DNA of 45,115 bases, from the IMG/VR virus record IMGVR_UViG_3300045988_060953, positions 1 to 45,115 of that record; one strand, given 5' to 3'. Position numbers and translations under genes: made by a program. Origin of the DNA: a virus. The notes under the pieces are model-generated. The model was given only the letters and a program-made list of their open reading frames with translations, was not told where the DNA came from and did no database searches. This document shows positions 2,404 through 33,511 of this stretch, in pieces. Numbering within the stretch: position 1 is the stretch's first letter; every line of letters begins with the position of its first letter.

Positions 2404-3558
2404 ATGACGTGTGTGAGATGTGCAAGAGACATCCCAGAAGGGGCGCTGTTTTGCCCGTGGTGTGGCAAACGGCAGACGGCGGCCACCCGGCCAAAGGCAA
2501 GAAGGGCAAAGGGCAACGGCTCCATTGCGCGTCTGCAAGGGCGCAGCTCGCCCTACAAGGCTGTTTACAAGGGGGCCTATATCGGTTGCTATAAAACCAA
2601 ACAAGACGCGGAGAGGGCTATTCTCGCGGCCTCAGAGCAAGAACCTGATTTGGAGTACCGAAACTACACCATGCAGCAGGTGTATGACGCGGTGATCTCT
2701 GACCGTGCTTTCCGGCAGAACACAGAGAAGTACCGGATTGACGTGGCATCCACCTGGAACTACATGACAGAGCTGCACCACGTCAAGGCAATCAACGTGC
2801 GAAAAGAAACGTTGGAGGGCATCCTGTACCGGGCAGAGGATGAAGGGAAATCGAAGTCCCACCAGCACAAGCTCCGCTCGCTCATGCACAAGCTCTGTAT
2901 GTTTTGCGTCCAGCACGGCATCCATCAGACGGATTACTCCGAGGGCCTGAAACTCACCGCCGACGTGAAGAGCCAGCGTGTGCCGTTTGCTGATGAAGAT
3001 TTGCGGTTGCTCTACCAGCACCGATATGAGCGGGTGCCCGGCATTATCTGGTTCTTGTGCATGAGTGGTTGCCGCCTTGTAGACCTTGCGAAGATCTCAC
3101 GTAATGGCTGCATTGACTTTGAGCGCCACGGCATCCGTCTGGAAGGCTCCAAAACCGCCGCCGGGAAGAACCGGTACATTCTTCTCGACCCCATCACATG
3201 GGACGTGTTTATGCACTTCTGCAACGACACAAAGCCCGGCCAGCGCATTTTCCGCAGCCCAAATGGCAGCGCCTGGAACATCCGCAATTTCCGGATACGA
3301 GAATTCTACACGGGCCTGGAAGAAATAGGTGTGCAGAATCCGCACCGCTATGTCCCTTACTCATGCCGTCACACCTTCGCCAGTCTCGCGGCCAAAGCGA
3401 ACGTGGACAAGGAAGCGCTGCAACGCGCCATCGGCCACCAGATCGGCAGTTCTGTCACGGACGATTATTATATTTCGCAAGACGCACACATCGCCGTCGC
3501 ACAAGAAGAGTTTGAAAAAATGGCAAACGAGATTAAATGTATTATTGATGCAACGTAA
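2404..3558 (+). CDS. int: Tyrosine integrase with an N-terminal zinc-ribbon
   Basis: RBS GAGGTG then ATG at 2404 (the track's GTG at 2395 is less likely). N-terminus CVRCARDIPEGALFCPWCGKR is CxxC...CxxC. Catalytic signature: CMSGCRLVDL (Arg), HRYVPYSCRHTFAS (HxxR), IGHQIGSSVTDDYY (His...Tyr). Confidence 0.9.
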   Translation: MTCVRCARDIPEGALFCPWCGKRQTAATRPKARRAKGNGSIARLQGRSSPYKAVYKGAYIGCYKTKQDAERAILAASEQEPDLEYRNYTMQQVYDAVISDRAFRQNTEKYRIDVASTWNYMTELHHVKAINVRKETLEGILYRAEDEGKSKSHQHKLRSLMHKLCMFCVQHGIHQTDYSEGLKLTADVKSQRVPFADEDLRLLYQHRYERVPGIIWFLCMSGCRLVDLAKISRNGCIDFERHGIRLEGSKTAAGKNRYILLDPITWDVFMHFCNDTKPGQRIFRSPNGSAWNIRNFRIREFYTGLEEIGVQNPHRYVPYSCRHTFASLAAKANVDKEALQRAIGHQIGSSVTDDYYISQDAHIAVAQEEFEKMANEIKCIIDAT

Positions 3559-3772: not shown

Positions 3773-3898
3773 TTATAAGTGCTTTACACGGTCTCGTTCT
3801 TCGGCCTTCTTTGCGTCGTTCCACTTGTCCATTGTGCCCACCAGATAGCCGGTGATCCGGCGGATACGCTCAAAGGCAATGTTGTTACCAATGTCCAT
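3773..3898 (-). CDS. 41-aa stand-alone NrdD-type glycyl-radical C-terminal motif protein
   Basis: Below the ORF-track length cutoff. Strong RBS AAAGGAG 6 nt before the ATG. Translation: MDIGNNIAFERIRRITGYLVGTMDKWNDAKKAEERDRVKHL. It matches the class III ribonucleotide reductase C-terminus pattern RR(V/I)(C/T)GYL...(F/W)N.(G/A)K..E...RVKHL, as in E. coli NrdD ...RRVCGYLGSPDARPFNAGKQEEVKRRVKHL. Confidence 0.75.
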   Translation of the reverse strand: MDIGNNIAFERIRRITGYLVGTMDKWNDAKKAEERDRVKHL

Positions 3899-3912
3899 GT
3901 GCTGCTCCTTTC

Positions 3913-6900
3913 TTACCGAGAAGATTTCCAGTTGGACGAACTCGCCGCCCAGAATGCGTCTTTCATGGCATCGCTCATGTCGCTGTCATTCAGCCATGCA
4001 CGGGCCTCGCTCTGGTTAATGCCCGTCTTGCCGTCCGTGTTCGCGTACTTCCGGTAGGCAATCCAGTTCATCAGCCCATCAATGCCATACTGATTGTAGA
4101 TGTCAACGCGCTTCCGCTCTTCGGTGCCAACGGAGAAGTCGGGCACGATGTCCAGAGCTGCAATTTTGCCTGCGGTGCCGTACAGCTCCGGGATAAGCTC
4201 CACTTGCTGCTCTTCGGTGTAGCGAGAATCCAACACGGCTTCTGCCATGTCCTTGCGCAGTTGGCCTTGCTGTGTTGCAAAGTCGGTGTACTCTTGCGGA
4301 GAAAGCTGGTAGGTGTGCTTTTCCTTGTCAACTGTCCAAGACAGCTTCTTTTCGGCAAGCTCCGGAATAACTTCGTCGTTGCCGGTGCTGTTCGCCAGAT
4401 CGAGCAAGCCAAGCTGCACCGGATCGTCCGTGGTTTCGGAATAGTAGCCGGGGGAGAACATGTTGTAGGCAAGACGGCCAACAAAGTTCCCGCCGGGGTT
4501 TTCTTCCGTGTCGCCGAATGCATCAATATACGGTTGGCTGGTTTGCGACAAAAACGGAATTTTGTTCCGCATTTTGTTGGCCGTATAACCCAAGTCTGAT
4601 TCAATGCCGGTCGTGCCGCTATAGGTGCTGCGCCGAATGGGGTCAATGGTTCGGGCAACCTGTCCCAGAGACGTTGGCACATACTGCGTTGCATACCCGG
4701 TAATCGCTTCACGTGTCAATCCAGGAATGAAACCATCTCGGGAATACCGCAGGTTTTCAAACGAGTTGTTCATGCCCTGCAGGAATGTGTTTGTAATAAG
4801 CGGCTCAAGCATGTGCGTTGTCGCATCGTAAATGTCGTTGAGCGATACATCGTCATCCGTCGTCAGGTTTGCAAATTCTGCACCGGCAAGCATTGGGATA
4901 GCCACAGAGTTGGCCCAACTAATGGTGTAACTATGCAGTTTCCCGTTCTCATCCGCTAGTTGGAGGCTGTACTCCTGTCGGCCTTCCATGTCCGCCTTTA
5001 CCTTGTCGTCGTCATCAATTCCGCCGGTGAGCAGTCCCTTGCGTGCCAATATTGCGCCAAGCACGAACAAGCTGGTACCTGTTACAGATGCTGCTGCGTG
5101 GTCAAGCATTACATTGAAATTACCGCTTCCCGTTGCCACCTTTGCGCCTTCTATCGCGGTAGAAGCAAATCCAAGCGGGCTGTACTGCATCGCTTGTTTG
5201 GCAACGTTGATGGGAGTTTTCACGAACGGGAGTTCGCCTTCGGCCAACGCATAAAAGAATTTATGGTGCCAACCGTCCGCTTCGGCAAGGCTGCGCTTTC
5301 CTTTCGCAATGATCGTCGCTGTTTCAGAATCAGCATGGAATGTGTTGATAAACGCCTGTGTCAAAGCATGAGCACGCGCCTTATCAAGGATCTGCATACT
5401 TGCTTCGTCTGTTGCGCTGAAAATGCTTTGGTCTAGGCCGTTTGCCTTGAGGTACTGAGCCAGAGATCGTGCGTAATTGTTTTTCAGACCGGCAACGCCA
5501 AGAACGCCCGCTTGGGTAGACTTGTCGCATTGAGACGTAACCCAGTCTATCGCACTATCCATTTGCTTGTTGATCCCACGCAGGCCATCCAGCATCCCAA
5601 AGAAACCTTTGTAGTCACCACTTTCCAACGACTTCGAGGAAGCTTCGGCCCGTCCGTCTAAATACGCAAACAAGCCCCGAACGATCGTTCCGCTGTCATC
5701 TGTAAGGTGACTTTGCCAGAGGTTCCCCTTTTGCTGCATGGATTGCGCAAAATCAATTTTGTCGCTTCCCGTTGCAAGCTGGCGATAGTTCGCATCTGCG
5801 TCCGCAGCGCAAGCCGAAAGCAACGCACGGCCTTTCGGAGTAAACGCACTAACAATAGATGTCGTGCGTTCAAACCCGGACTTGTCACGCCAATTGTGCT
5901 TCTTTGCAAATGGCAGGTCAAGAACCTTGTTCACAAGGACTTCTTCTCCGGCAAGTACAATGTCTTTCATGCGGGCATTTGCGCCTTGTGTAATGTTGCC
6001 TCCGGCGTTTACAAGGTTTGTGCGAGCGTTGAGAAGCATAGACGTGAACCGCAAAGAATTGATTGTATCCCACCAAGAAGAGGTTACGTTCTTTGCCGCA
6101 ATTGTCGCCGCCTTGTTTTCCAGATCCACCCGCTCCCGGCTGTTTGCGGGCAACGCTTCCGCCTGCTCCGTTAAGTCAAGGATCTGCTGGCACTGCTCCG
6201 CAGTCAAGGGCTGTACGCCAAACTTCGACGCGGCATAGGCTTTCACATCTTCGTTGTCGTAAATGCCCATGCGCAAAAGCCCCAAAAATTGGTCGTGCGT
6301 GGACTTGCTCGTTTTGCCTTTCCCGCCCCGGATGGCTTTCAGGTTTGCGTCCGCCGCTTCTGACAATGCTTTGGAATACTCGTTCATGGCCATTTCGGCA
6401 ATACGTTGTGCTTGCGTGTCGTCCATGTCGAAGGTATCCTGAATGCGCTCCTGAATTTCTCGAAGAGTGGACTGTTTGTCCCTACGCCCTTTTTTGACTA
6501 GGGTCTTGAAGTCAATCCCTTGATCTTTGGTGTACTTGGACACAAGTTGCTTTATTGTATCTTTCCCGTACAAGCCGGATTCTCCGGCATCATTAAAGAA
6601 AGCTTGCAGGCGGCTGCTCATGTCGGCATTGTCTTTATACCTTTCGACAAGTGCTTCCTTTGCCGCTTCCCATGCCTGCGTGTATGTCTCCTGATTGTCC
6701 AATGCGGTTTGCAACTTCTGTTCGACCGTCAGCTTCGGCTTTTTAGGCCGTGCGCCTTTCTCGGTGTCGCTTGTCGCCATTTTGGTCAGCTGGGAAAGCA
6801 TCTCGCTTTGCACAACGTCCTCAACGCTGGCTTCTTTCCCGTCCGTTGCGTACCGATTTACGGCAGCTGCCAGCTTGCGCCCCAACACGTCCTCAACCGA

Positions 6901-17552: not shown

Positions 17553-18860
17553 TCACACATAGCAGATAACGCCATATCCATGCGGTGTACCACCGCCGTA
17601 GTTGCCATCCCATTGCATATAAATGTTTTGGTTTGCAATCACAGAGAACGTAGCAACGTAAAAGTTGTTTCTCATTGGCGTTGCCACAACCTTACTACCA
17701 ATGGTAATTGATTTGATTTGCATATCGTGATTGGCGTTGCCCACGAAGAAGAAAAGCAGAGTACCAGCGGATGGAGTGGTAGCCATCATATGCGTCGAGT
17801 AGTCTTCTGGAATAGATCCATTCCAAACCGCTTTCGTCACACCGGCCCCATTTACGCCCAGCACCGTGTTCCCGGCGCAAAGCTTGCCCGCTGTCAGGCC
17901 GATTGCGCTGGCCACTTTGGCAAAAGTCTCGCCCACATAGCTGTTCCCATCGTAAAATCCAGCAGGAGGCTGCAAGCACAAGCGAGAAACCCCATCAAGG
18001 TTGTTGTTTGTTTGCGTGTTGTTGCTATTCGCTTTGGATACGGCCACCTCTGGAAAATACTGGCTGATTCCTACGGTACCGTTTTGCCCGACGGTGTTGC
18101 GTGGCAGGATTTCACCGGTTTTAAGCGTTTTGTCGCCAGAATAAAACTTTTTGCCAGAAATCACGTCTCCGGTGTCGGCAGTGGCGAGGGCGAGCTTGGT
18201 ATTCGACAGGCCCCCGCCACCATTAAAATTTATCTGCGTACCGTCCTGCGTAAAGGTCAGCCACCGGCCCGTGACGGATTCACCGGCCAGCGCATCGGCA
18301 AAGGTTTCCGCGCCCACATAGGCGGGCACTTCCTTTCCGCCCAGCATCACCGTGTCCCCGGCTTCCACGTCAGCCGTCATCTTGGCGCGGCCGCTTGTGC
18401 CAGAGCCGTTAAAGTGGTGCACGTTGTCCATCTTGGTGTGCGTGTAAGTGCTTACGCCGCGAGAGTCGGCATAGGCGAAGATGTCCCGTTGCCTGTGGGT
18501 CGGGTCATACGTGGCTTGCGTCATATCCGCACTACCAATCTGGTCAATGCGGTCGCTGATTGCTTTTTCTGTCTGGTCTTTTGTATACGCGCCGACCTGT
18601 TCCGCAGTTACATTGTGCGGATTTTCCAGGTTGTCAATGTGGCCTTGCGCTGTGCGGTTTTTGCCTTTGGCGCCGATTTGACTTGCCGCCGAAGGCCCTA
18701 AAAGTTCGTCCACTAGCTGATTGAACTTCGGCACAAGAACTTCCCGTGCTATCTGCTCAAACTTCGCCTGCATCTCGCTTGTGGAAAGGCCGGGCGTATC
18801 GGGCAGCCCCATAACGCCCTTGTCCTTCAAATCTCCGTCTGTGATTTTTGTGAAGGCCAT
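17553..18860 (-). CDS. Tail fibre / tail appendage protein
   Basis: 435 aa. The N-terminus MAFTKITDGDLKDKGVMGLPDTPGLSTSEMQAKFEQIAREVLVPKFNQLVDEL is a typical phage fibre anchor. The C-terminal half shares a module with the 15571-16323 product. Confidence 0.7.
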   Translation of the reverse strand: MAFTKITDGDLKDKGVMGLPDTPGLSTSEMQAKFEQIAREVLVPKFNQLVDELLGPSAASQIGAKGKNRTAQGHIDNLENPHNVTAEQVGAYTKDQTEKAISDRIDQIGSADMTQATYDPTHRQRDIFAYADSRGVSTYTHTKMDNVHHFNGSGTSGRAKMTADVEAGDTVMLGGKEVPAYVGAETFADALAGESVTGRWLTFTQDGTQINFNGGGGLSNTKLALATADTGDVISGKKFYSGDKTLKTGEILPRNTVGQNGTVGISQYFPEVAVSKANSNNTQTNNNLDGVSRLCLQPPAGFYDGNSYVGETFAKVASAIGLTAGKLCAGNTVLGVNGAGVTKAVWNGSIPEDYSTHMMATTPSAGTLLFFFVGNANHDMQIKSITIGSKVVATPMRNNFYVATFSVIANQNIYMQWDGNYGGGTPHGYGVICYV

Positions 18861-19442: not shown

Positions 19443-21361
19443 ACGTCTGCCCCCTCCAAATGGTCACTGTCAGTCATGAGCATATCCGGCTGTATTGCTT
19501 GCTGTGCAGCCGGTTGCATGGCAGCCTGTTGCATTTGCTGCTGCTCGTCCATCTGCTGTTTGATTTCGGTTTTTACCTTCCCAGCCCCAGGGAATCCATT
19601 ATCTTCTAGATAAGTCCAGAATCGGTAGCTGGTAGTCAGGTCACCAATCGGGCCAAACGCACCTGCCTGATACTTCACGTCTGCCATATCCCACAGCCGT
19701 TCACGGTTCGCATCCATGTTCGGGGACGGGTCAACGCCAAAAATAAACTCGTCATCCCAGTACAATTCACCGGCGGCATCCCGTTTCAGGAAATCCCACC
19801 GGTTGAAATGGGCGAACGTCTGCTCTCCGCCGATTGCCGTGTAAGTCATCGGGTACGGTTGGTCAGCATAGGCCAACATGTACTTGAAGAGCAGCTTGTA
19901 CAGCCGCCCATACGCCTGATTCTTCATCTCGCGTTTGGACTGCAAACGGCCAGCCGCCTGTTGTGCAGCAAACTGCTTTGCGCTGCCGCTGGTTGCAGAT
20001 GCATCGTACTTGCCCTGATACGAATCGTTAATGCCCAGCGTACTCTTTGCCCAGCTGTAATTGCTTTCCAGCATTTGCTGTTCACGGCTTGTGTCGGGCT
20101 GAACATTGATAACAGAGATCAACGCCTTTTCCGCCGGGTTTTTCAGCCGCATGATTTTCAGCTCTTTGTCGCTGGTTTCAACCTGAACGCCTTGCGGAAG
20201 CGTAACATAGCTGCCGCCTTTGAGCAGCTTCTCTTCAATCTTCGTGCCAAACTTCTTGATCGCGTTTTGCTGATCTTCAATCACATCAACGTCGCTCACG
20301 CCCAAGAAGCGGCCGAACATCCGCACATTGCTGCGGAGAATAACGGGAATTTCTTTCGGCTCGTAGTACGGGATTTGCGTGGGCACGTTCGGGCCGGGCA
20401 TGGTAATAGCCACGCCTTCCTCGTCCACCTGCGGGGTTCCGTCCGGGTTCATCACAAGTTCGTCTTTACCCGGGGTGCTTGCCGCAACAGTTTCACCGCC
20501 AAAAATGGTGATGTCCGCGGTCAGCTCTTGCACATCCAGCGGGCCTTCCACGAACTTTTTGCTGCCGCACTCGCACACATCTCCGGACTTCGGGCGGCCG
20601 CATTTCGCGCACACCTCGCCGCGCCGTTTCTGGCAGTTGTCCAAATCTTCCAGAGTTACGTCTCCGCACCAGCTGTACATGCCAACGCCGCCTTCATCGT
20701 TACGATAATACGCGATATTTTGAGTAACAATGCCACTTACAGAACTCGGATTCTGCCCTCTGGCCGCCACATCATCCTCTGTTTCATCCTTGATTTCAAC
20801 GCCGTACCGCCGTTCAAGGTAGCGTTTCGGCTGGCTTACAAGAATGAAAATGTACTCCATCTTGTCGATGTCGTACACGCCGGGCTGCGGAATAACCTGC
20901 TTCGGGTGGCGCTCTGTCAGCGTTACGTCGCCCAACATACAGTGGTATCCGCCGTGCGGGTCCCACTCAACGTGAAAAAAGTCGCCGCCCTGAATGGGGA
21001 CGGTTCGCTCTTGCAGGTCGTTCAGCTCTTTCAGGTTGAGCTGCTTGCTCAGGTTCAGCAACAGAGCCTCAATCTTTTTTGCAAGCTCTTTGTCCTCTTC
21101 GTGGATAGCTGTGACGCGGGGGGCGGGGATAGAGGAATCCACCTGGCTTTCGATCAGCTCGTACACGATGTTGCGGACGTTGGTTGCCTTTTTTTCTGCG
21201 TCTGTACCGTTTGCGCCACGAATGTTTTTGTCGCCACGATACAGCGCTTCGCGGGTATCCATAATGGTGCGGTCGTACTGCTTTCTTGCGTCATCCAGCC
21301 GACTTTGCCATTTCCCCCGCTTTGTGGCATCGTCAGCAGCGTGTTTCAGCTTCTCGAACAT
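19439..21361 (-). CDS. Portal protein
   Basis: 640 aa. RBS GGAGGAG. N-terminal KATNVRNIVYELIESQVDSSIPAPRV-type portal motif. Acidic, Q-rich C-terminus. The size fits a portal. Confidence 0.65.
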   Translation of the reverse strand: MFEKLKHAADDATKRGKWQSRLDDARKQYDRTIMDTREALYRGDKNIRGANGTDAEKKATNVRNIVYELIESQVDSSIPAPRVTAIHEEDKELAKKIEALLLNLSKQLNLKELNDLQERTVPIQGGDFFHVEWDPHGGYHCMLGDVTLTERHPKQVIPQPGVYDIDKMEYIFILVSQPKRYLERRYGVEIKDETEDDVAARGQNPSSVSGIVTQNIAYYRNDEGGVGMYSWCGDVTLEDLDNCQKRRGEVCAKCGRPKSGDVCECGSKKFVEGPLDVQELTADITIFGGETVAASTPGKDELVMNPDGTPQVDEEGVAITMPGPNVPTQIPYYEPKEIPVILRSNVRMFGRFLGVSDVDVIEDQQNAIKKFGTKIEEKLLKGGSYVTLPQGVQVETSDKELKIMRLKNPAEKALISVINVQPDTSREQQMLESNYSWAKSTLGINDSYQGKYDASATSGSAKQFAAQQAAGRLQSKREMKNQAYGRLYKLLFKYMLAYADQPYPMTYTAIGGEQTFAHFNRWDFLKRDAAGELYWDDEFIFGVDPSPNMDANRERLWDMADVKYQAGAFGPIGDLTTSYRFWTYLEDNGFPGAGKVKTEIKQQMDEQQQMQQAAMQPAAQQAIQPDMLMTDSDHLEGADV

Positions 21362-27361: not shown

Positions 27362-27435
27362 TGGTTGGGCTGGCAGGTGTCGAACCTGCTATGTGGGAGT
27401 CAAAGTCCCATGCCTTACCGTTTGGCCACAGCCCA
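27362..27435 (-). tRNA. tRNA-Gln(TTG), CCA encoded
   Basis: Hand-folded: acceptor TGGGCTG/CAGCCCA; D arm GCC-AAACGGTAA-GGC; anticodon arm TGGGA-CTTTGAC-TCCCA; T arm GCAGG-TTCGACA-CCTGC; A-CCA. Confidence 0.85.
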
Positions 27436-27539
27436 ATAAAAAAGCCCCGCATGGTACGCATTGTGAAGAGGCGCGCGGGGGTGCCTGCCGTGAACTCCCG
27501 CTTGCGCCCCGGCGGGATATTTTAACGGGTCATCGGCTT

Positions 27540-27615
27540 TGGAGCCGCCAGAAGGACTCGAACCCTCGACCTGCTGCTTACAAGACAGCCGCTCTACCAA
27601 CTGAGCTATGACGGC
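27540..27615 (-). tRNA. tRNA-Thr(TGT), CCA encoded
   Basis: Hand-folded: acceptor GCCGTCA/TGGCGGC; D arm GCTC-AGTTGGTA-GAGC; anticodon arm GCTGT-CTTGTAA-GCAGC; T arm GAGGG-TTCGAGT-CCTTC; T-CCA. Confidence 0.85.
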
Positions 27616-28951: not shown

Positions 28952-28981
28952 AGTATACCACGCTCCACCGGTTCCCGTCAA
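28952..28981 (-). promoter_or_regulatory. Sigma70-type promoter for the RHH-terS transcript
   Basis: Minus strand reads TTGACG (28981..28976), 18 nt, TATACT (28957..28952). Confidence 0.6.
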
Positions 28982-29070
28982 CGTGTACAAACTGCACAAT
29001 TTCCCGTTAACCGATTTGTGAGATTCTCCAAACTTCCCGTTAACGGGTTGACAACATACACGCTAACGGG
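28972..29070. promoter_or_regulatory. Array of TTCCCGT(C/T)AAC repeats, including the palindrome CCCGTTAACGGG
   Basis: Direct copies at 28972, 29001 and 29034. Perfect 12-bp palindrome at 29036-29047 abutting the -35 of the plus promoter. An inverted half-site TAACGGG at 29064-29070 lies inside that promoter's spacer. Confidence 0.7.
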
Positions 29071-29076
29071 TATACT
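29048..29076 (+). promoter_or_regulatory. Sigma70-type promoter of the plus-strand island
   Basis: TTGACA (29048-29053), 17 nt, TATACT (29071-29076). Confidence 0.75.
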
Positions 29077-29128: not shown

Positions 29129-29467
29129 ATGAGCAAAGCACTTACCACCGAAGAGCTCATCAAAAAGATGGCGTGGCACGTATCCCGCGAGGTCAAGCAC
29201 TACGCCTCCGACTTTGAGATCGACCGCGCCCAGCTGACCGAGGCCGTCGAAACTGGCCGCTATGGTCAGTACATCTGGATCACCCGCAACTGCGGCACGC
29301 ATCTCGTGCCGGTCGGTATCGCAGCCACAGACCCCGACCAAAGCGCCGAGCTGCTGGCAGCTATCCGGCGCACATGGTCGGACGCCGAGCGCCGCGAGTA
29401 CTGCATCACCCTGGGCCCCTGCAGCCACTCTTTCCAGCCCCTCCGGCAGAGGGAGGCGCAAGCATGA
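29129..29467 (+). CDS. Hypothetical protein (island gene 1)
   Basis: 112 aa. RBS AAGGAGGA. No motif recognised. Confidence 0.55.
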   Translation: MSKALTTEELIKKMAWHVSREVKHYASDFEIDRAQLTEAVETGRYGQYIWITRNCGTHLVPVGIAATDPDQSAELLAAIRRTWSDAERREYCITLGPCSHSFQPLRQREAQA

Positions 29468-29556
29468 GACTCACCCGCATAGAGTGCCTGGCTTTGGGCT
29501 TTGCCTGGGGGCTTACGCTCCCGGTGCTATGGCTCCATTGCCTGGGCATGATCTAA
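29464..29556 (+). CDS. 30-aa hydrophobic peptide (island gene 1b)
   Basis: ATGA-coupled to gene 1. MRLTRIECLALGFAWGLTLPVLWLHCLGMI. Its stop (CTAAGA) is the 5' edge of intergenic repeat copy A, exactly as in copy C. Confidence 0.4.
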   Translation: MRLTRIECLALGFAWGLTLPVLWLHCLGMI

Positions 29557-29587
29557 GATCCGCAAGGCCGGCGCATAACGCGCCGCA
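29554..29587 (+). ncRNA. Structured intergenic element, copy A (5' module only)
   Basis: CTAAGATCCGCAAGGCCGGCGCATAACGCGCCGC shares the 5' module and first hairpin (CGGCGC-ATAAC-GCGCCG) with copies B and C, then diverges. Confidence 0.5.
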
Positions 29588-29683
29588 TCTAACCCCGGCA
29601 CCCGGACACTTTAGCAGGGCTGCACCGACTAAAGCAACCTCGCCCCATCGTCCCAAAAACAAACACAAACGGAGGTACACAAA

Positions 29684-29904: not shown

Positions 29905-30189
29905 ATGGCATCCATTGAACGCAAAATCCCCGGCATCCACGCCGACAAGCCCGGAGAGTACGCCTACTGCTACGAGATGCAGCAGGCCCCCACAGGCTGC
30001 GACCACTCCGCCGATCTTTCCTTTTATGGCAAGCACTACTTCCTGCGCCCCCTGCGTGACGACCTGCCCCCGCTCCATGGGCGCGGCATTACCTACGACG
30101 CAGCAGATGGCACCTACATGGTCACGCTCCGCGCCTATGACAAGATCAAAGCGCAATACAAGGTCAAGCGCGAAACTTGCCTTGATTGA
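29905..30189 (+). CDS. Hypothetical protein (island gene 3)
   Basis: 94 aa. RBS CAGGAGGT. Confidence 0.55.
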   Translation: MASIERKIPGIHADKPGEYAYCYEMQQAPTGCDHSADLSFYGKHYFLRPLRDDLPPLHGRGITYDAADGTYMVTLRAYDKIKAQYKVKRETCLD

Positions 30190-30260
30190 CCCGCAAGGCC
30201 GACGCATAACGCGCCGCTGGTGCAAGTCCAGCCGCCCATCCGGGCGGGCGCTCATGGGTT
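30187..30260 (+). ncRNA. Structured intergenic element, copy B
   Basis: TGACCCGCAAGGCC-[GACGC ATAAC GCGCC]-[GCTGG TGCAAGT CCAGC]-[CGCCC ATCC GGGCG]-GGCGCTCATGGGTT. Starts at the stop codon of gene 3. Confidence 0.6.
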
Positions 30261-30297
30261 GAAAGCCCTACCGCAACGCCACAAAGGAGGACACATC

Positions 30298-30658: not shown

Positions 30659-30686
30659 ATAGGGAGGGGCTTCCGCCTCTCCCTAT
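30659..30686 (+). terminator. Strong hairpin (12-bp stem, no U-tract) separating two sub-operons of the island
   Basis: ATAGGGAGGGGC-TTCC-GCCTCTCCCTAT with one G-U pair. Confidence 0.45.
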
Positions 30687-31101: not shown

Positions 31102-31365
31102 ATGAAAAAAGCCGAGTTGAAAGACGTTGCCACCCGGTACGGGATGGGCATTATCCGCGAGGAAGTCACAAGCAAAGGCGTCGGGCTGTACCTCGTGACT
31201 GAGGAGGACATCCCGGAGCTGGATGCCCTAGCCAGCACACCCCCGTTTTCCGCAGCGCCGGGAGCGGTGGACGCAACGAAAGAATACAGCCCGTGCGACA
31301 ACACCCATACTTACCGCGTCTACTGCCCCTCAAACTGGTTTGACCTGTGGGGATGGGCAGACTAA
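31102..31365 (+). CDS. Hypothetical protein (island gene 6)
   Basis: 87 aa. RBS GGAAGGAGAA. Confidence 0.55.
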   Translation: MKKAELKDVATRYGMGIIREEVTSKGVGLYLVTEEDIPELDALASTPPFSAAPGAVDATKEYSPCDNTHTYRVYCPSNWFDLWGWAD

Positions 31366-31438
31366 GACCCGCAAGGCCGACGCGCAAGCGCCGCCGGTGC
31401 AAGCCCGGCCACCCCGTAAGGGTGGGCGCTCATGGGTT
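31363..31438 (+). ncRNA. Structured intergenic element, copy C
   Basis: TAAGACCCGCAAGGCC-[GACGC GCAA GCGCC]-[GCCGG TGCAAGC CCGGC]-[CACCC CGTAA GGGTG]-GGCGCTCATGGGTT. Hairpins 2 and 3 each differ from copy B by a compensatory base-pair change. Confidence 0.6.
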
Positions 31439-31462
31439 ATCCAAAAGAAGGAGGAAAGAACC

Positions 31463-31882
31463 ATGAAAACAGAAATCGTCGTCTCCATTGGGGGCGCTGT
31501 CAAGCGTTCGCCCAACCGTGAACCGGACGAGTTCGCCTACTTCACGCAGGTGTGCGGTTTTTCGTTCACTGCGCTCCCCGTACCTGACGGGTGGCAATGG
31601 AACATTGGCTTCCAGGGGGACGCGCCGCACCGCAAAAGAGTGACAATCTCCCTGCCGGACTTCATTCTCAAGGACAAGGTATGGGAGTTGCATTCTGAGT
31701 ACCGCACGGACGACGGGCTCGGAGACCTTGTCGTAATCACTTGCGACCCCGTCCGCGTGTGCGGAAGCGTGGAGGCGGCAATAGATGCAGCGGTCAAAAC
31801 GATTGTTGTGTCCGCGCCCACAAAGTCAGGCAAGCGGGAAAATATCCCGTTTACCATCGAGGCAGTATCACCCATCTGGTGA
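31463..31882 (+). CDS. Hypothetical protein (island gene 7), anti-CRISPR candidate by position
   Basis: 139 aa from ATG 31463 (RBS GAAGGAGGAAA). Its stop lies 4 nt before the solitary CRISPR repeat. Confidence 0.55.
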   Translation: MKTEIVVSIGGAVKRSPNREPDEFAYFTQVCGFSFTALPVPDGWQWNIGFQGDAPHRKRVTISLPDFILKDKVWELHSEYRTDDGLGDLVVITCDPVRVCGSVEAAIDAAVKTIVVSAPTKSGKRENIPFTIEAVSPIW

Positions 31883-31885
31883 TGT

Positions 31886-31918
31886 GTCGTCCCCCGTGCG
31901 GGGGACGTGGATTGAAAC
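31886..31918 (+). CRISPR. Solitary type I-C-like CRISPR repeat unit (no array, no cas genes)
   Basis: GTCGTCCCCCGTGCGGGGGACGTGGATTGAAAC, 33 nt. 8-bp stem CGTCCCCC/GGGGGACG with loop GTGC and a GTGGATTGAAAC tail, as in known I-C repeats (for example GTCGCGCCCCGCACGGGCGCGTGGATTGAAAC). Single copy, in sense orientation within the operon. Confidence 0.85.
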
Positions 31919-31944
31919 AAGATATCAACAGGAGGAAATCAAGA

Positions 31945-32262
31945 ATGTGGAACAAAGCAGAACTTTTTGCAATGGCCCAAGAGCAGCCGAAGGAAATCTT
32001 TAAAAGCAATGTAACCCTGAGCATCCCGGACAACGCGCCGGGCTGTGTTGATCTCGACGCAGAAACCGAACGCTTGTCCCGCTTTTGGGACGTTGCGCAC
32101 ATGACTGTGCGGGAACTCGCAGAAGCCACCGGAATGAGCCAATCTGCCTTTGCCCGGGCCGCTTGCATCCCTCTGCGCACCATGCAAAACTGGTGCGGGG
32201 CGCAGCGGAATTGCCCGGATTATATCCGCTTTTTGTTGGCGGAACATTTCGGGCTGATCTAA
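31945..32262 (+). CDS. HTH regulator, Aca-like (anti-CRISPR-associated type) by context
   Basis: 105 aa. RBS AGGAGG at 31931-36. HTH MTVRELAEATGMSQSAFARAACIPLRTMQNWCGAQRNCPDYIRFLL, the XRE/antitoxin-type pattern IP.RT.QNWE.G.R.P. Confidence 0.6.
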   Translation: MWNKAELFAMAQEQPKEIFKSNVTLSIPDNAPGCVDLDAETERLSRFWDVAHMTVRELAEATGMSQSAFARAACIPLRTMQNWCGAQRNCPDYIRFLLAEHFGLI

Positions 32263-32265
32263 AGT

Positions 32266-32290
32266 GAGGCGCGGGGGTGTCCCGCGCCTC
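32266..32290 (+). terminator. GC-rich hairpin (attenuator-like) after the HTH gene
   Basis: GAGGCGCGGG-GGTGT-CCCGCGCCTC followed only by TT. Confidence 0.4.
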
Positions 32291-32311
32291 TTGTCAAAAG
32301 GAGGTGCACCC

Positions 32312-33046
32312 ATGCCGAAGGCGCAAAAGAAGTACGAATTCACCGGTGAAACGAAAGAATTTTCCGGACACACCCTGCACCGCATCCGCGCAGTGCGGGA
32401 TTTTGACAACGAGGCTTGCCATGTAAAGGCGGGAGACCTGGGCGGGTGGATTGAAAGCGATAAAAACCTCGACCAAGACTATACCGCATGGGTCACAGAC
32501 GAGGCCATGGTTTACGGAAAAGCATCAGTCGCCGAAGAGGCGTTGGTGTCAGGGCATGCGCAAGTCTTTGGCGAAGCCATTGTAACAGGTGGCGCAGTGG
32601 TCACCGACAACGCCCGCATTTTCGGTGACGCGTTTATATTGGACTTTGTGAAAATTTACGGCGACACCCAATTTTGCGGTGATACAATGGTGTCCGATGC
32701 AGTGTATGACCACGGCATCGTGATGCATACAGCCGAGCGAGACGTGAAGATGTACTTTATCCGGGAGCCGGGTGTTGTGTGGAACGGCGAATGCTCTCGC
32801 GACGCAATCACCGATGACGGGCGTTACATGGAGATCACGTGCAAAGCCCCAGACTTAAAGCGAAAACCGGGCGAAAGTGAGGACGAGTACGAGGCCCGCT
32901 TGATTGACGCCACAGAATGGGAAACTCCCATCCGAGTTACTGACATCCACAAAGGCGGAAAGCGGACCGTCGTTGCGGAAAATGGCAGTGCAACATTTTC
33001 TCCGCTGTGCTCCGGCATCACTGTATGGCACCCGGATGAAGAATAA
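32312..33046 (+). CDS. Beta-helix repeat protein (hexapeptide-like A-x-V-x-G repeats), function unknown
   Basis: 244 aa from ATG 32312 (RBS AAAGGAGGTG). KAGDLGGWIESDKNL then VYGKASVAEEALVSGHAQVFGEAIVTGGAVVTDNARIFGDAFI. Confidence 0.55.
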   Translation: MPKAQKKYEFTGETKEFSGHTLHRIRAVRDFDNEACHVKAGDLGGWIESDKNLDQDYTAWVTDEAMVYGKASVAEEALVSGHAQVFGEAIVTGGAVVTDNARIFGDAFILDFVKIYGDTQFCGDTMVSDAVYDHGIVMHTAERDVKMYFIREPGVVWNGECSRDAITDDGRYMEITCKAPDLKRKPGESEDEYEARLIDATEWETPIRVTDIHKGGKRTVVAENGSATFSPLCSGITVWHPDEE

Positions 33047-33066
33047 CATTTAAGATCAAGCAAAAC

Positions 33067-33102
33067 AAAAGAGGTCACAACCTTTCGGCTGCGACCTCTT
33101 TT
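33067..33102. terminator. Bidirectional terminator between the convergent island and early operon
   Basis: AAAAGAGGTC...GACCTCTTTT stem flanked by an A-tract and a T-tract. Confidence 0.7.
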
Positions 33103-33103
33103 G

Positions 33104-33511
33104 TTATTTGTCCAGATTTTTTACAGCGGACCGATGCAAAGCATATACCCAGTCGATGCTGTAGCCGCACTTCTCCGCGACCTGCTGCCATGTGCAGCCG
33201 TCCACGTACCGCATTGCAAGCACGGTTCGCTCCGTCCTGCTTTCCAGCTTTTTCAGCGCGTCCGAAATTTCGATCAGCGCGGCCTTTGCCTCTGCCATGG
33301 CCTGGTTTGCATCCTCGCGTATGGCTTCGATCCGCTCCACCGCCGCCGGGATGTGGTCGCTTGTGCCGCCGCGTCCCAGAGTAGACGACACGCTGGCCGT
33401 GCACTTCGTGGCTTGCGTGTTGGCCTCTTCCAGCCGGGCGGTTGCCATGCGGTAGTCGCTCAGCGCGTCCTGATACCGTCTCAGCCATGCTTTGCGCTCA
33501 TCATAAGTCAC
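33104..33511 (-). CDS. Sigma-70 region-4-like late transcriptional regulator (DUF1492/ArpU-RinA-like class)
   Basis: 135 aa from GTG 33511 (RBS AAGGTGA). C-terminus ERTVLAMRYVDGCTWQQVAEKCGYSIDWVYALHRSAVKNL is a region-4 HTH. Last gene of the early operon. Confidence 0.65.
   Translation of the reverse strand: MTYDERKAWLRRYQDALSDYRMATARLEEANTQATKCTASVSSTLGRGGTSDHIPAAVERIEAIREDANQAMAEAKAALIEISDALKKLESRTERTVLAMRYVDGCTWQQVAEKCGYSIDWVYALHRSAVKNLDK

Follow-up and report, generated by a model that had tools for sequence, protein, structure and literature searches.

Solitary CRISPR repeat units (SRUs) have been described on phages, and some of them act as RNA anti-CRISPRs (Racrs). The nearest such case is RacrIC1, a type I-C solitary repeat that lies 11 nt after an acrIC5 homologue, is co-transcribed with it, and is active in PAO1::IC with an identity of only 29/34 to the tested repeat (Camara-Wilpert et al. 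2023, Nature 623:601; PMC10651486). In addition, the SRUFinder table (supplement of PMC10651486; concept of Faure et al. 2019) lists Ga0129314_1000874:16229-16261 as a type I-C solitary repeat. Here, a 45,115-nt stretch of viral DNA (the window; IMG/VR record IMGVR_UViG_3300045988_060953, positions 1 to 45,115) was analysed, in which an initial annotation had singled out a solitary type I-C-like repeat at 31886-31918 as a candidate Racr-type element and had noted that such elements were already described. Both RacrIC1 and a sister-phage entry in the SRUFinder table bear out the latter: SRUs and Racrs of subtype I-C are a known kind with a tested member, and the repeat of this phage lineage is already catalogued. 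The candidacy itself gains from a match to host arrays and from conservation of the repeat tail in relatives, and by analogy with RacrIC1 the solitary repeat is probably an RNA anti-CRISPR of the RacrIC type, a decoy for Cas5c and Cascade.

The solitary repeat, its alleles and the repeats of the hosts

The 33-mer GTCGTCCCCCGTGCGGGGGACGTGGATTGAAAC occupies 31886-31918 on the + strand. A 2-nt overhang precedes an 8-bp stem (31888-31895 paired with 31900-31907), composed of seven G-C pairs and one U-A pair and closed by the loop GTGC (31896-31899); the 11-nt 3' tail which follows (TGGATTGAAAC, 31908-31918) resembles a 5' handle. This agrees with the type I-C repeat layout described in PMC8524198, that is, 32-33 nt with a 2-nt 5' overhang, a GC-rich stem of 7-8 bp, a loop of 4-5 nt and an 11-nt 3' tail UGGAUUGAAA(C/U). 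By the cut-site rule of the same study, Cas5c is predicted to cut between 31907 and 31908 (+ strand), and the window's allele retains the U-G-G recognition triplet at this site. The best score against the Rfam CRISPR-DR families (CRISPR-DR9, 25.2 bits, E = 0.037) stays below the gathering cut-off of 45, a result to which little weight is given because these families are narrow. An intrinsic terminator is ruled out, as no U-tract stands behind the hairpin (the tail reads UGGAUUGAAAC) and a terminator scan made no call, and ribozyme covariance models found no family match in 31860-31960, even at E up to 5.

The repeat is solitary. At up to three mismatches the 33-mer is found once in the 45,115 bases (0 further copies expected from 100 shuffles), and a looser regular-expression scan of both strands detected no other I-C-like repeat in the window. 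Local alignment to the 150 nt on each side gave scores of 13 and 8 of 33, well below 70% identity, and comparable scores were reached by 3.8% and 65% of 500 shuffles, respectively. No array was found, and within 100 bp there is no further repeat, whole or partial, at >70% identity; this absence is what defines an SRU. A 12-mer, GTGGATTGAAAG, at 32446 is a chance-level match to the repeat inside a coding region. The carrier is a virus without cas genes, since tblastn of the window with type I-C Cas proteins from a host locus returned no match better than E = 0.03. The repeat runs in sense orientation within a + strand operon and starts 3 nt past the stop codon of gene F, a 139-aa open reading frame (its first base is at +4), while the 26 nt behind it carry the ribosome-binding site (RBS) of gene G (AGGAGG at 31930-31935). 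The initial annotation had described the element in these very terms, as one I-C-type hairpin and tail in sense orientation with no degenerate neighbour and no cas genes, placed between the 139-aa frame and the RBS of a helix-turn-helix (HTH) gene, and this description stands, with the addition that the HTH matches of G are weak.

Relatives show that the whole repeat is maintained. The F-G junction could be read in 21 distinct contigs (10 from IMG/VR, one from Logan and 10 from a metagenome collection; L-numbers in the following denote collected contigs of relative phages as well as host and genome loci), and the window and all of these carry a solitary I-C-like repeat there (22/22). Pairing of the hairpin holds in 98.3% of cells across 15 distinct sequences, a value which none of 500 shuffles reached, and two stem pairs show compensatory C-G to U-A changes. 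It had been anticipated that conservation of the hairpin without the tail would point to a terminator-like element. The tail is kept too: its TTGAAA core is intact in 19 of the 22 contigs, with TTGAAG in L003 and TCGAAA in L068 and L069 as the departures, and this single-stranded core persists while the linker to the RBS has accumulated insertions and deletions. Some copies show stem or tail defects (L068/L069, L071/L074). In L068 and L069 (repeats at 3922-3954 and 3893-3925) a stem mismatch accompanies the tail ATCGAAAT; the active RacrIC1 has the same ATCGAAAC-type tail. The exact 33-mer has no match in IMG/VR, the relatives differing from it by at least one base.

The alleles fall into two classes. 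Class 1, which includes the window's allele, has the stem CCCCC/GGGGG and the tail TGGATTGAAAC, and class 2 has the stems TCTCC or CCTCC and the tail (G/A)GGNTTGAAAT. Identity between repeat alleles drops to about 70% in phages whose 300-nt flanks are 93-97% identical, an identical repeat is common to phages whose F genes are only 75% identical, and in L065 a class-2 repeat is joined to a class-1 linker. Each allele, loop included, lies within 0-3 mismatches of a different host array variant. The repeat thereby appears to behave as a fast-changing cassette following host repeat variants. The two sides differ systematically at the first base after the stem, a position left free in the search pattern: of 426 host repeats, 425 have T there, and 12 of the 22 phage copies have G or A. 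A change of this kind, U22G, nearly abolished cleavage by the Bacillus halodurans Cas5c but had only a mild effect on the Streptococcus mutans enzyme (PMC8524198). With this Cas5c-critical base changed, class-2 alleles may therefore, by analogy, be bound and only poorly cut.

Repeats of this type are found in arrays of gut bacteria. A degenerate repeat pattern run against one genome per prokaryotic species returned 41 loci, mostly arrays, in gut Oscillospiraceae, Ruminococcaceae and other Clostridia. The closest, in array L036 of an Eubacteriales metagenome-assembled genome (MAG; the L036 stretch covers 603 nt), differs from the window's 33-mer in the last base only, and arrays L026, L044 and L046 of Clostridia MAGs differ by three mismatches and equal the L009/L010 phage copy except for the last base. 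A cas5c-cas8c(Csd1)-cas7-cas4-cas1 operon is located directly upstream of arrays of this repeat class (Pfam, tblastn), and the orientation of the array repeats relative to this cas operon is that of the repeat in the phage operon. The matching I-C array on whose existence in a candidate host the initial annotation had made its reading depend is thus present in gut Clostridia, at one to three mismatches and in a class adjoined by cas genes; the CRISPR-Cas type mimicked by the repeat belongs to the host range. Genome-scan loci with a single match, considered as possible prophage copies, turned out to be small arrays or unrelated solitary repeats.

Type I-C arrays also hold spacers against the phages. 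Positions 18265-18299 (- strand) match a spacer of the I-C array L028 (Oscillospiraceae MAG W1P33.020) in 34 of 35 bases with the protospacer adjacent motif (PAM) TTT, positions 20808-20841 (- strand) match a spacer of the I-C array L035 (an uncultured Oscillospiraceae MAG) in 33 of 34 with the PAM TTC, and another L028 spacer matches four relative phages. As host I-C spacers match both the window and its relatives, these matches indicate that the phage lineage is being attacked by the type I-C systems from which it copies the repeat.

Several loci of the host collection carry further repeats outside ordinary arrays. On the - strand of L046 (MAG UMGS1206), a separate two-repeat mini-array at 400-560, about 470 nt downstream of the main I-C array, may be a host mini-array of the CRISPR RNA-like RNA (crlRNA) type; its last repeat has two mismatches to the window's, ends in C and is identical to the L009/L010 solitary repeat. 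Two genome contigs of Firmicutes have further solitary I-C repeats of the same repeat class, namely L025 (413-445) and the Turicibacter contig L061/L083, the latter with a TATAAT-like sequence upstream. The L025 layout is classical (TATAAT promoter, repeat, about 20 nt, terminator). Both contrast with the copy in the window, which is embedded in an operon.

A sequence of events by which the repeat would protect the phage can be proposed. Transcribed in the sense direction within the roughly 4-kb accessory operon of a temperate gut Oscillospiraceae phage, the hairpin and its UGGAUUGAAAC tail would mimic the repeat of a host CRISPR RNA (crRNA) precursor and be bound by the host Cas5c, which in the case of the window's allele would cut between 31907 and 31908. 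Cas5c would then keep the 5' handle, and Cas7 and Cas8c would be drawn after it onto a phage RNA without a spacer, leaving fewer Cas proteins for those host crRNAs that target the phage. In type I-F, it is the RNA upstream of the cut, retained by Cas6f, that inhibits (PMC10651486). Cas5c recognises the cut site together with the downstream handle and stays on the handle (PMC8524198), and the active, Cas-loaded product is therefore, by analogy, more likely the start of the G message. The linker at 31919-31944 would in that event become the RNA in spacer position directly behind the 5' handle, and Cas5c would sit on the RBS of G. The order F-repeat-G resembles an acr-racr-aca arrangement, with putative anti-CRISPR (Acr) and anti-CRISPR-associated (Aca) roles for F and G; Racrs are often, though not always, neighbours of acr or aca genes.

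A number of observations weigh against a RacrIC-type decoy. Binding, expression and inhibition by the repeat are all argued from sequence comparison, and the ribozyme-rich context treated below gives a hint that selection may act on RNA cleavage as such. No promoter was found within 250 nt upstream of the repeat, the nearest good one being 2.8 kb away, unlike most catalogued SRUs, among which candidates for testing were chosen by such a nearby promoter; RacrIC1 shows, however, that a near promoter is not obligatory for SRU activity (PMC10651486). The arrays with spacers matching the window have a repeat that is six bases off the window's allele, and no representative genome among the repeat-scan loci carries this prophage and could be named as its exact host. 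F lacks similarity to any known Acr in searches by sequence and by fold, and its most distant homologue (L062, 55% identity) is followed by an ordinary terminator and no repeat. Likewise, G fits no named Aca family, having no match in PDB or NCBIfam.

Ribozymes at the other gene junctions and possible alternative roles of the repeat

Ribozyme parts of the RiboJ type serve as synthetic insulators between cistrons. In the window, two self-cleaving ribozymes and a further RNA motif, all on the + strand, occupy junctions of the operon: a twister-sister ribozyme at 31364-31442 fills the E-F junction (78.1 bits, gathering score 34), another at 30186-30264 fills the B-C junction (79.9 bits), and the junction before gene A contains a RAGATH-5 RNA motif at 29602-29654 (61.5 bits, gathering score 50). 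Just upstream of the latter, 29559-29590 (ATCCGCAAGGCCGGCGCATAACGCGCCGC) is closely similar to the first (5') half of the twister-sister consensus, RAGATH-5 standing in place of the other half, and 29559-29654 may represent either a hybrid or a ribozyme variant not yet described. In relatives, type II hammerhead and pistol ribozymes occur as well, and every ribozyme is on the sense strand. Of the 21 genomes in which the junction upstream of F can be read, six have a twister-sister ribozyme there and 12 a type II hammerhead; the other three (L008, L068 and L069) lack a ribozyme at this place and share an unrelated gene directly upstream of F. Ribozyme classes thus replace each other at one junction in otherwise syntenic phages (L001-L010 around 3900-3990; L063-L074; the window at 31364-31442). 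The repeat and the ribozymes obey one layout, starting no more than 4 nt from the upstream stop codon and ending 20-33 nt before the next start codon.

This combination is, to all appearance, peculiar to the lineage. A blastn comparison of the 4.4-kb operon with GenBank phages gave only a weak 256-nt match, and a degenerate repeat scan of IMG/VR returned the known relatives, an unrelated mini-array (L078) and the solitary Turicibacter copy (L083, the same contig as L061). As the scan added only these two, and ribozymes were found in neither, the placing of a repeat in a ribozyme operon looks, on this comparison, lineage-specific. An Eubacteriales MAG contig (L058) has a solitary I-C repeat at 3008-3040, 1.4 kb from a pistol ribozyme (1537-1604) and near a distant G-like HTH gene; it was rejected as a second case of repeat plus ribozyme, the repeat being antisense to the local genes and to the ribozyme. 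No natural operon combining ribozymes and a CRISPR repeat as intercistronic elements was found in literature searches that did not query that combination directly. As far as checked, the co-residence with ribozymes, the host link through spacers, the host-following allele series and the recurrent change of a Cas5c-critical base are new.

The shared layout raises the alternative that the repeat is primarily a module for Cas-dependent operon processing or a Cas-sensing switch, an intercistronic cleavage site cut in trans by the host Cas5c. The F message would be freed with a protective 3' hairpin, Cas5c and then Cas7 would come to cover the RBS at the 5' end of the G message, and the expression of F and G would come to depend on an active host I-C system. 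The initial annotation had offered a version of this, in which Cas5d cleavage uncouples the HTH message from the upstream genes. The ribozymes at the other junctions lend it support, as the repeat sits between stop and start codons as they do, all of them in sense, and the swap of classes upstream of F suggests that cleavage as such is selected; moreover, the RBS and AUG of G are always within 17-26 nt of the handle on which Cas5c would remain. Against this, the U behind the cut site is changed in 12 of the 22 phage alleles, a change which nearly abolished cleavage in the B. halodurans enzyme, so that cleavage may not be the conserved property. Furthermore, the junction before G homologues elsewhere holds a plain hairpin or nothing, never a ribozyme, and little would be gained by tying routine mRNA processing to a defence system that many hosts lack. 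Processing as the primary role is for these reasons regarded as unlikely, and it is compatible with a RacrIC-type decoy, since any cleavage would also titrate Cas5c.

The two functions may also be imagined in one. In such a scheme the junctions would hold exchangeable RNA-cleavage modules, of which the repeat would be the one that depends on the host, at once decoy and sensor, retuning the operon according to the CRISPR status of the host. Most long junctions carry ribozymes, and the F-G junction would be cut or occupied only in hosts with a type I-C Cas5c. There, Cas5c on the handle would seed a Cas7 filament burying the RBS and the start codon of G (both 12-27 nt past the handle), F would be set free as a message with a capped 3' hairpin, and alleles with the U-to-G change at the cut site would be non-cleavable 'trap' versions. 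This scheme is speculative, and we consider it improbable.

That the repeat is a generic RNA hairpin without any Cas contact, either a 3' stabiliser or attenuator for the F message or a neutral relic of a host array, appears quite unlikely. It would account for the ordinary GC-rich hairpin found at the equivalent place before a G homologue in other phages, for the fact that the hairpin is the best-conserved part of the element, and for the copies with a defective stem or tail. It does not account for the preservation of the single-stranded TTGAAA core, which would be useless to a stabiliser, nor for the agreement of the alleles with distinct host variants down to the loop, which argues for repeated copying from, or selection towards, host repeats. 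The missing U-tract speaks against a role in termination, and the force of the defective copies is lessened in that the tested RacrIC1 itself has the ATCGAAAC tail variant seen in L068 and L069.

Far less credible is a crRNA-like regulatory guide of the Cracr type, in which the handle and the sequence downstream of it would lead Cascade to the host cas or creT promoter and repress it. Viral crlRNAs against I-C loci have been reported (bioRxiv 10.1101/2024.10.29.618823), and the downstream product would have the correct 5' handle. However, membership among crlRNA mini-arrays was rejected, as these have two repeats and the window has one, with no second repeat, even degenerate, to close a mini-array. 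The 'spacer' would consist of the RBS and the start of G, varying in length and sequence between alleles, and the pseudo-spacers on both sides gave only chance-level matches (no more than 12 exact bases, and no seed beside a TTC PAM) to the 41 host loci, outside which the cas3-proximal promoters mostly lie. Least plausible of all, and scarcely to be entertained, is a handle for recombination with, or integration into, host CRISPR arrays, as proposed for solitary repeats in the literature (PMC10651486, introduction): the allele swap at the repeat boundary in L065 does show recombination here, but the phage has its own tyrosine integrase 29 kb away, no locus of the host scan shows this phage beside an array, and a homology of 33 bp is short for recombination.

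Genes F and G and the accessory operon

Gene F (31463-31882, + strand) encodes a 139-aa orphan whose family comprises 21 clusters, all metagenomic, and is conserved. It has no match in Pfam, PHROGs or NCBIfam, nor with a PDB sequence profile. An AlphaFold2 model (mean predicted local distance difference test score, pLDDT, 76.7) is mostly beta-strand and gave no match to PDB with Foldseek (best E = 0.26). Searched against the BFVD viral library, the model retrieved only its own family and one 207-aa protein (A0A8S5SFD7), a fusion of an F-like domain with an HTH regulator. In L062 (185-858), the F homologue is preceded by an overlapping 77-aa gene resembling ribbon-helix-helix (RHH) proteins, an arrangement similar to that of toxin-antitoxin or regulator pairs; this RHH neighbour and the HTH fusion link the F fold to DNA-binding regulators. 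F is a candidate anti-defence (Acr-like) protein. In L008 (4001-4416) F is split by a frameshift.

The linker behind the repeat (31919-31944, 26 nt) is 17-26 nt long in all relatives and always contains GGAGGAAAT (GGAGAAAAT in L073). Gene G (31945-32262, + strand) encodes 105 aa with weak HTH matches (phrog_25567), and its family comprises 82 clusters. In other phages G homologues close short islands with an unrelated first gene, encoding for instance an acidic protein of 94 aa or a protein of 117 aa; palindromes are present in the promoters of these islands, and the junction before the G homologue holds a plain GC-rich hairpin or nothing; the search for a ribozyme at this equivalent junction was accordingly negative. 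Aca genes are recognised by an arrangement of this kind, in which small genes that vary are followed by a conserved HTH gene. The earlier proposal that the HTH gene is Aca-like is thus upheld as far as gene order goes, and G may be called Aca-like on this pattern; it finds no support from the named Aca families. Right after the G homologues of another phage lineage, on the opposite strand, a DUF3800-VIII RNA motif is present (L084 at 5329-5392, L086 at 2958-3021 and L087 at 5333-5396, - strand), and these three contigs also carry a reverse-transcriptase gene (RVT_1).

The window as a whole represents a temperate phage of about 45 kb with genes for an integrase, a repressor-like protein, an anti-repressor, DnaB, terminase and portal. 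Its accessory operon of about 4 kb runs on the + strand, opposite to nearly all other genes, and encodes some ten small proteins, for which searches of Pfam, PHROGs and NCBIfam found no functions apart from the matches of G (HTH, weak) and H (YdcK-like). The likely operon promoter, the only strong one on the + strand, lies at 29048-29076 (TTGACA, 17 nt, TATACT, 11 of 12 hexamer positions matching), and no terminator was found between it and the repeat. Four operator-like palindromes (CCCGTTAACGGG and variants) at 28974-29070 span this promoter and a divergent one on the - strand (28981-28952), and the HTH protein G is a candidate for binding them. The last gene of the operon, H (32312-33046, + strand), encodes a YdcK-like beta-solenoid protein of 244 aa, behind which a terminator-like convergent inverted repeat (I3) is located at 33064-33105.

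Other features of the operon concern its non-coding parts and its first genes. A 30-codon reading frame at 29465-29557, overlapping the stop codon of the first operon gene (29129-29467), encodes the hydrophobic peptide MRLTRIECLALGFAWGLTLPVLWLHCLGMI and may give rise to a small membrane peptide. Two strong GC-rich hairpins without U-tracts are present at 32268-32292 (the G-H junction) and at 30659-30686, the start of a 224-nt gap between C and D; this gap folds better than shuffled sequences (z = -3.8) and matches no Rfam family. Between the terminase module and the accessory operon, genes for tRNA-Gln(TTG) and tRNA-Thr(TGT) are located at 27362-27615 (- strand), in relatives too.

Significance and comparison with described systems

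As a Racr candidate, the repeat is a well-documented type I-C case from uncultured gut Oscillospiraceae phages. The natural allele series, with its host-following stems and the recurrent change of a Cas5c-critical base, offers a mutational panel for the study of binding, cutting and inhibition. Racrs of type I-C may act via the 5'-handle product, unlike those of type I-F, the only mechanism worked out so far. It has long been asked what the many twister-sister, hammerhead and pistol ribozymes do in the operons of phages, and an operon in which a junction with class-swapping ribozymes lies beside a putative protein-cut site provides a concrete system for asking how accessory and anti-defence cistrons are separated.

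Among the described systems, RacrIC1 shares most with the window's element. Both are I-C solitary repeats of a prophage or temperate phage, in sense orientation and at a short distance behind a small gene, 11 nt for RacrIC1 and 3 nt in the window; both lack a promoter of their own, have a GGATYGAAAC-like tail, and are similar to the host repeat without being identical to it. They differ in that the upstream gene here is an orphan and not an AcrIC5 homologue, that the host clade is Oscillospiraceae here and Bifidobacterium for RacrIC1, and that the window's repeat is directly followed by the RBS of an HTH gene in an operon with several self-cleaving ribozymes. The activity of RacrIC1 was tested, whereas the element of the window is known from its sequence. 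Closer still in descent is the catalogued entry Ga0129314_1000874, which in coordinates and sequence is exactly the copy of the sister phage L005/L072; the window's copy occupies the same junction, with a difference of one base. The entry consists of coordinates and subtype; what is described here on alleles, host match, targeting spacers and ribozyme context appears to go beyond it.

The mechanism proposed here would parallel that of RacrIF1 (PMC10651486): the host crRNA endonuclease binds and processes this mimic of a repeat, on which an aberrant Cas7 complex nucleates. The difference lies in the fragment concerned, since in type I-F the upstream fragment held by Cas6f inhibits, whereas in type I-C Cas5c retains the downstream 5' handle. 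The Cracr/crlRNA mini-arrays (bioRxiv 10.1101/2024.10.29.618823) and the mini-array L078 are likewise phage-borne I-C repeats without cas genes, but in them a guide resembling a spacer is enclosed by at least two repeats, and they have a promoter and a terminator of their own, whereas the window has a single repeat and no guide. On paper, the operon is similar to the synthetic cistron insulators, that is, the Csy4/Cas6f hairpins (PMC4604432) and the ribozyme insulators, in that a hairpin of the kind used by a CRISPR nuclease and self-cleaving ribozymes are placed between the cistrons of one transcript, at the same distances from stop and start codons; those constructs are engineered, while here the nuclease belongs to the defence system of the host.

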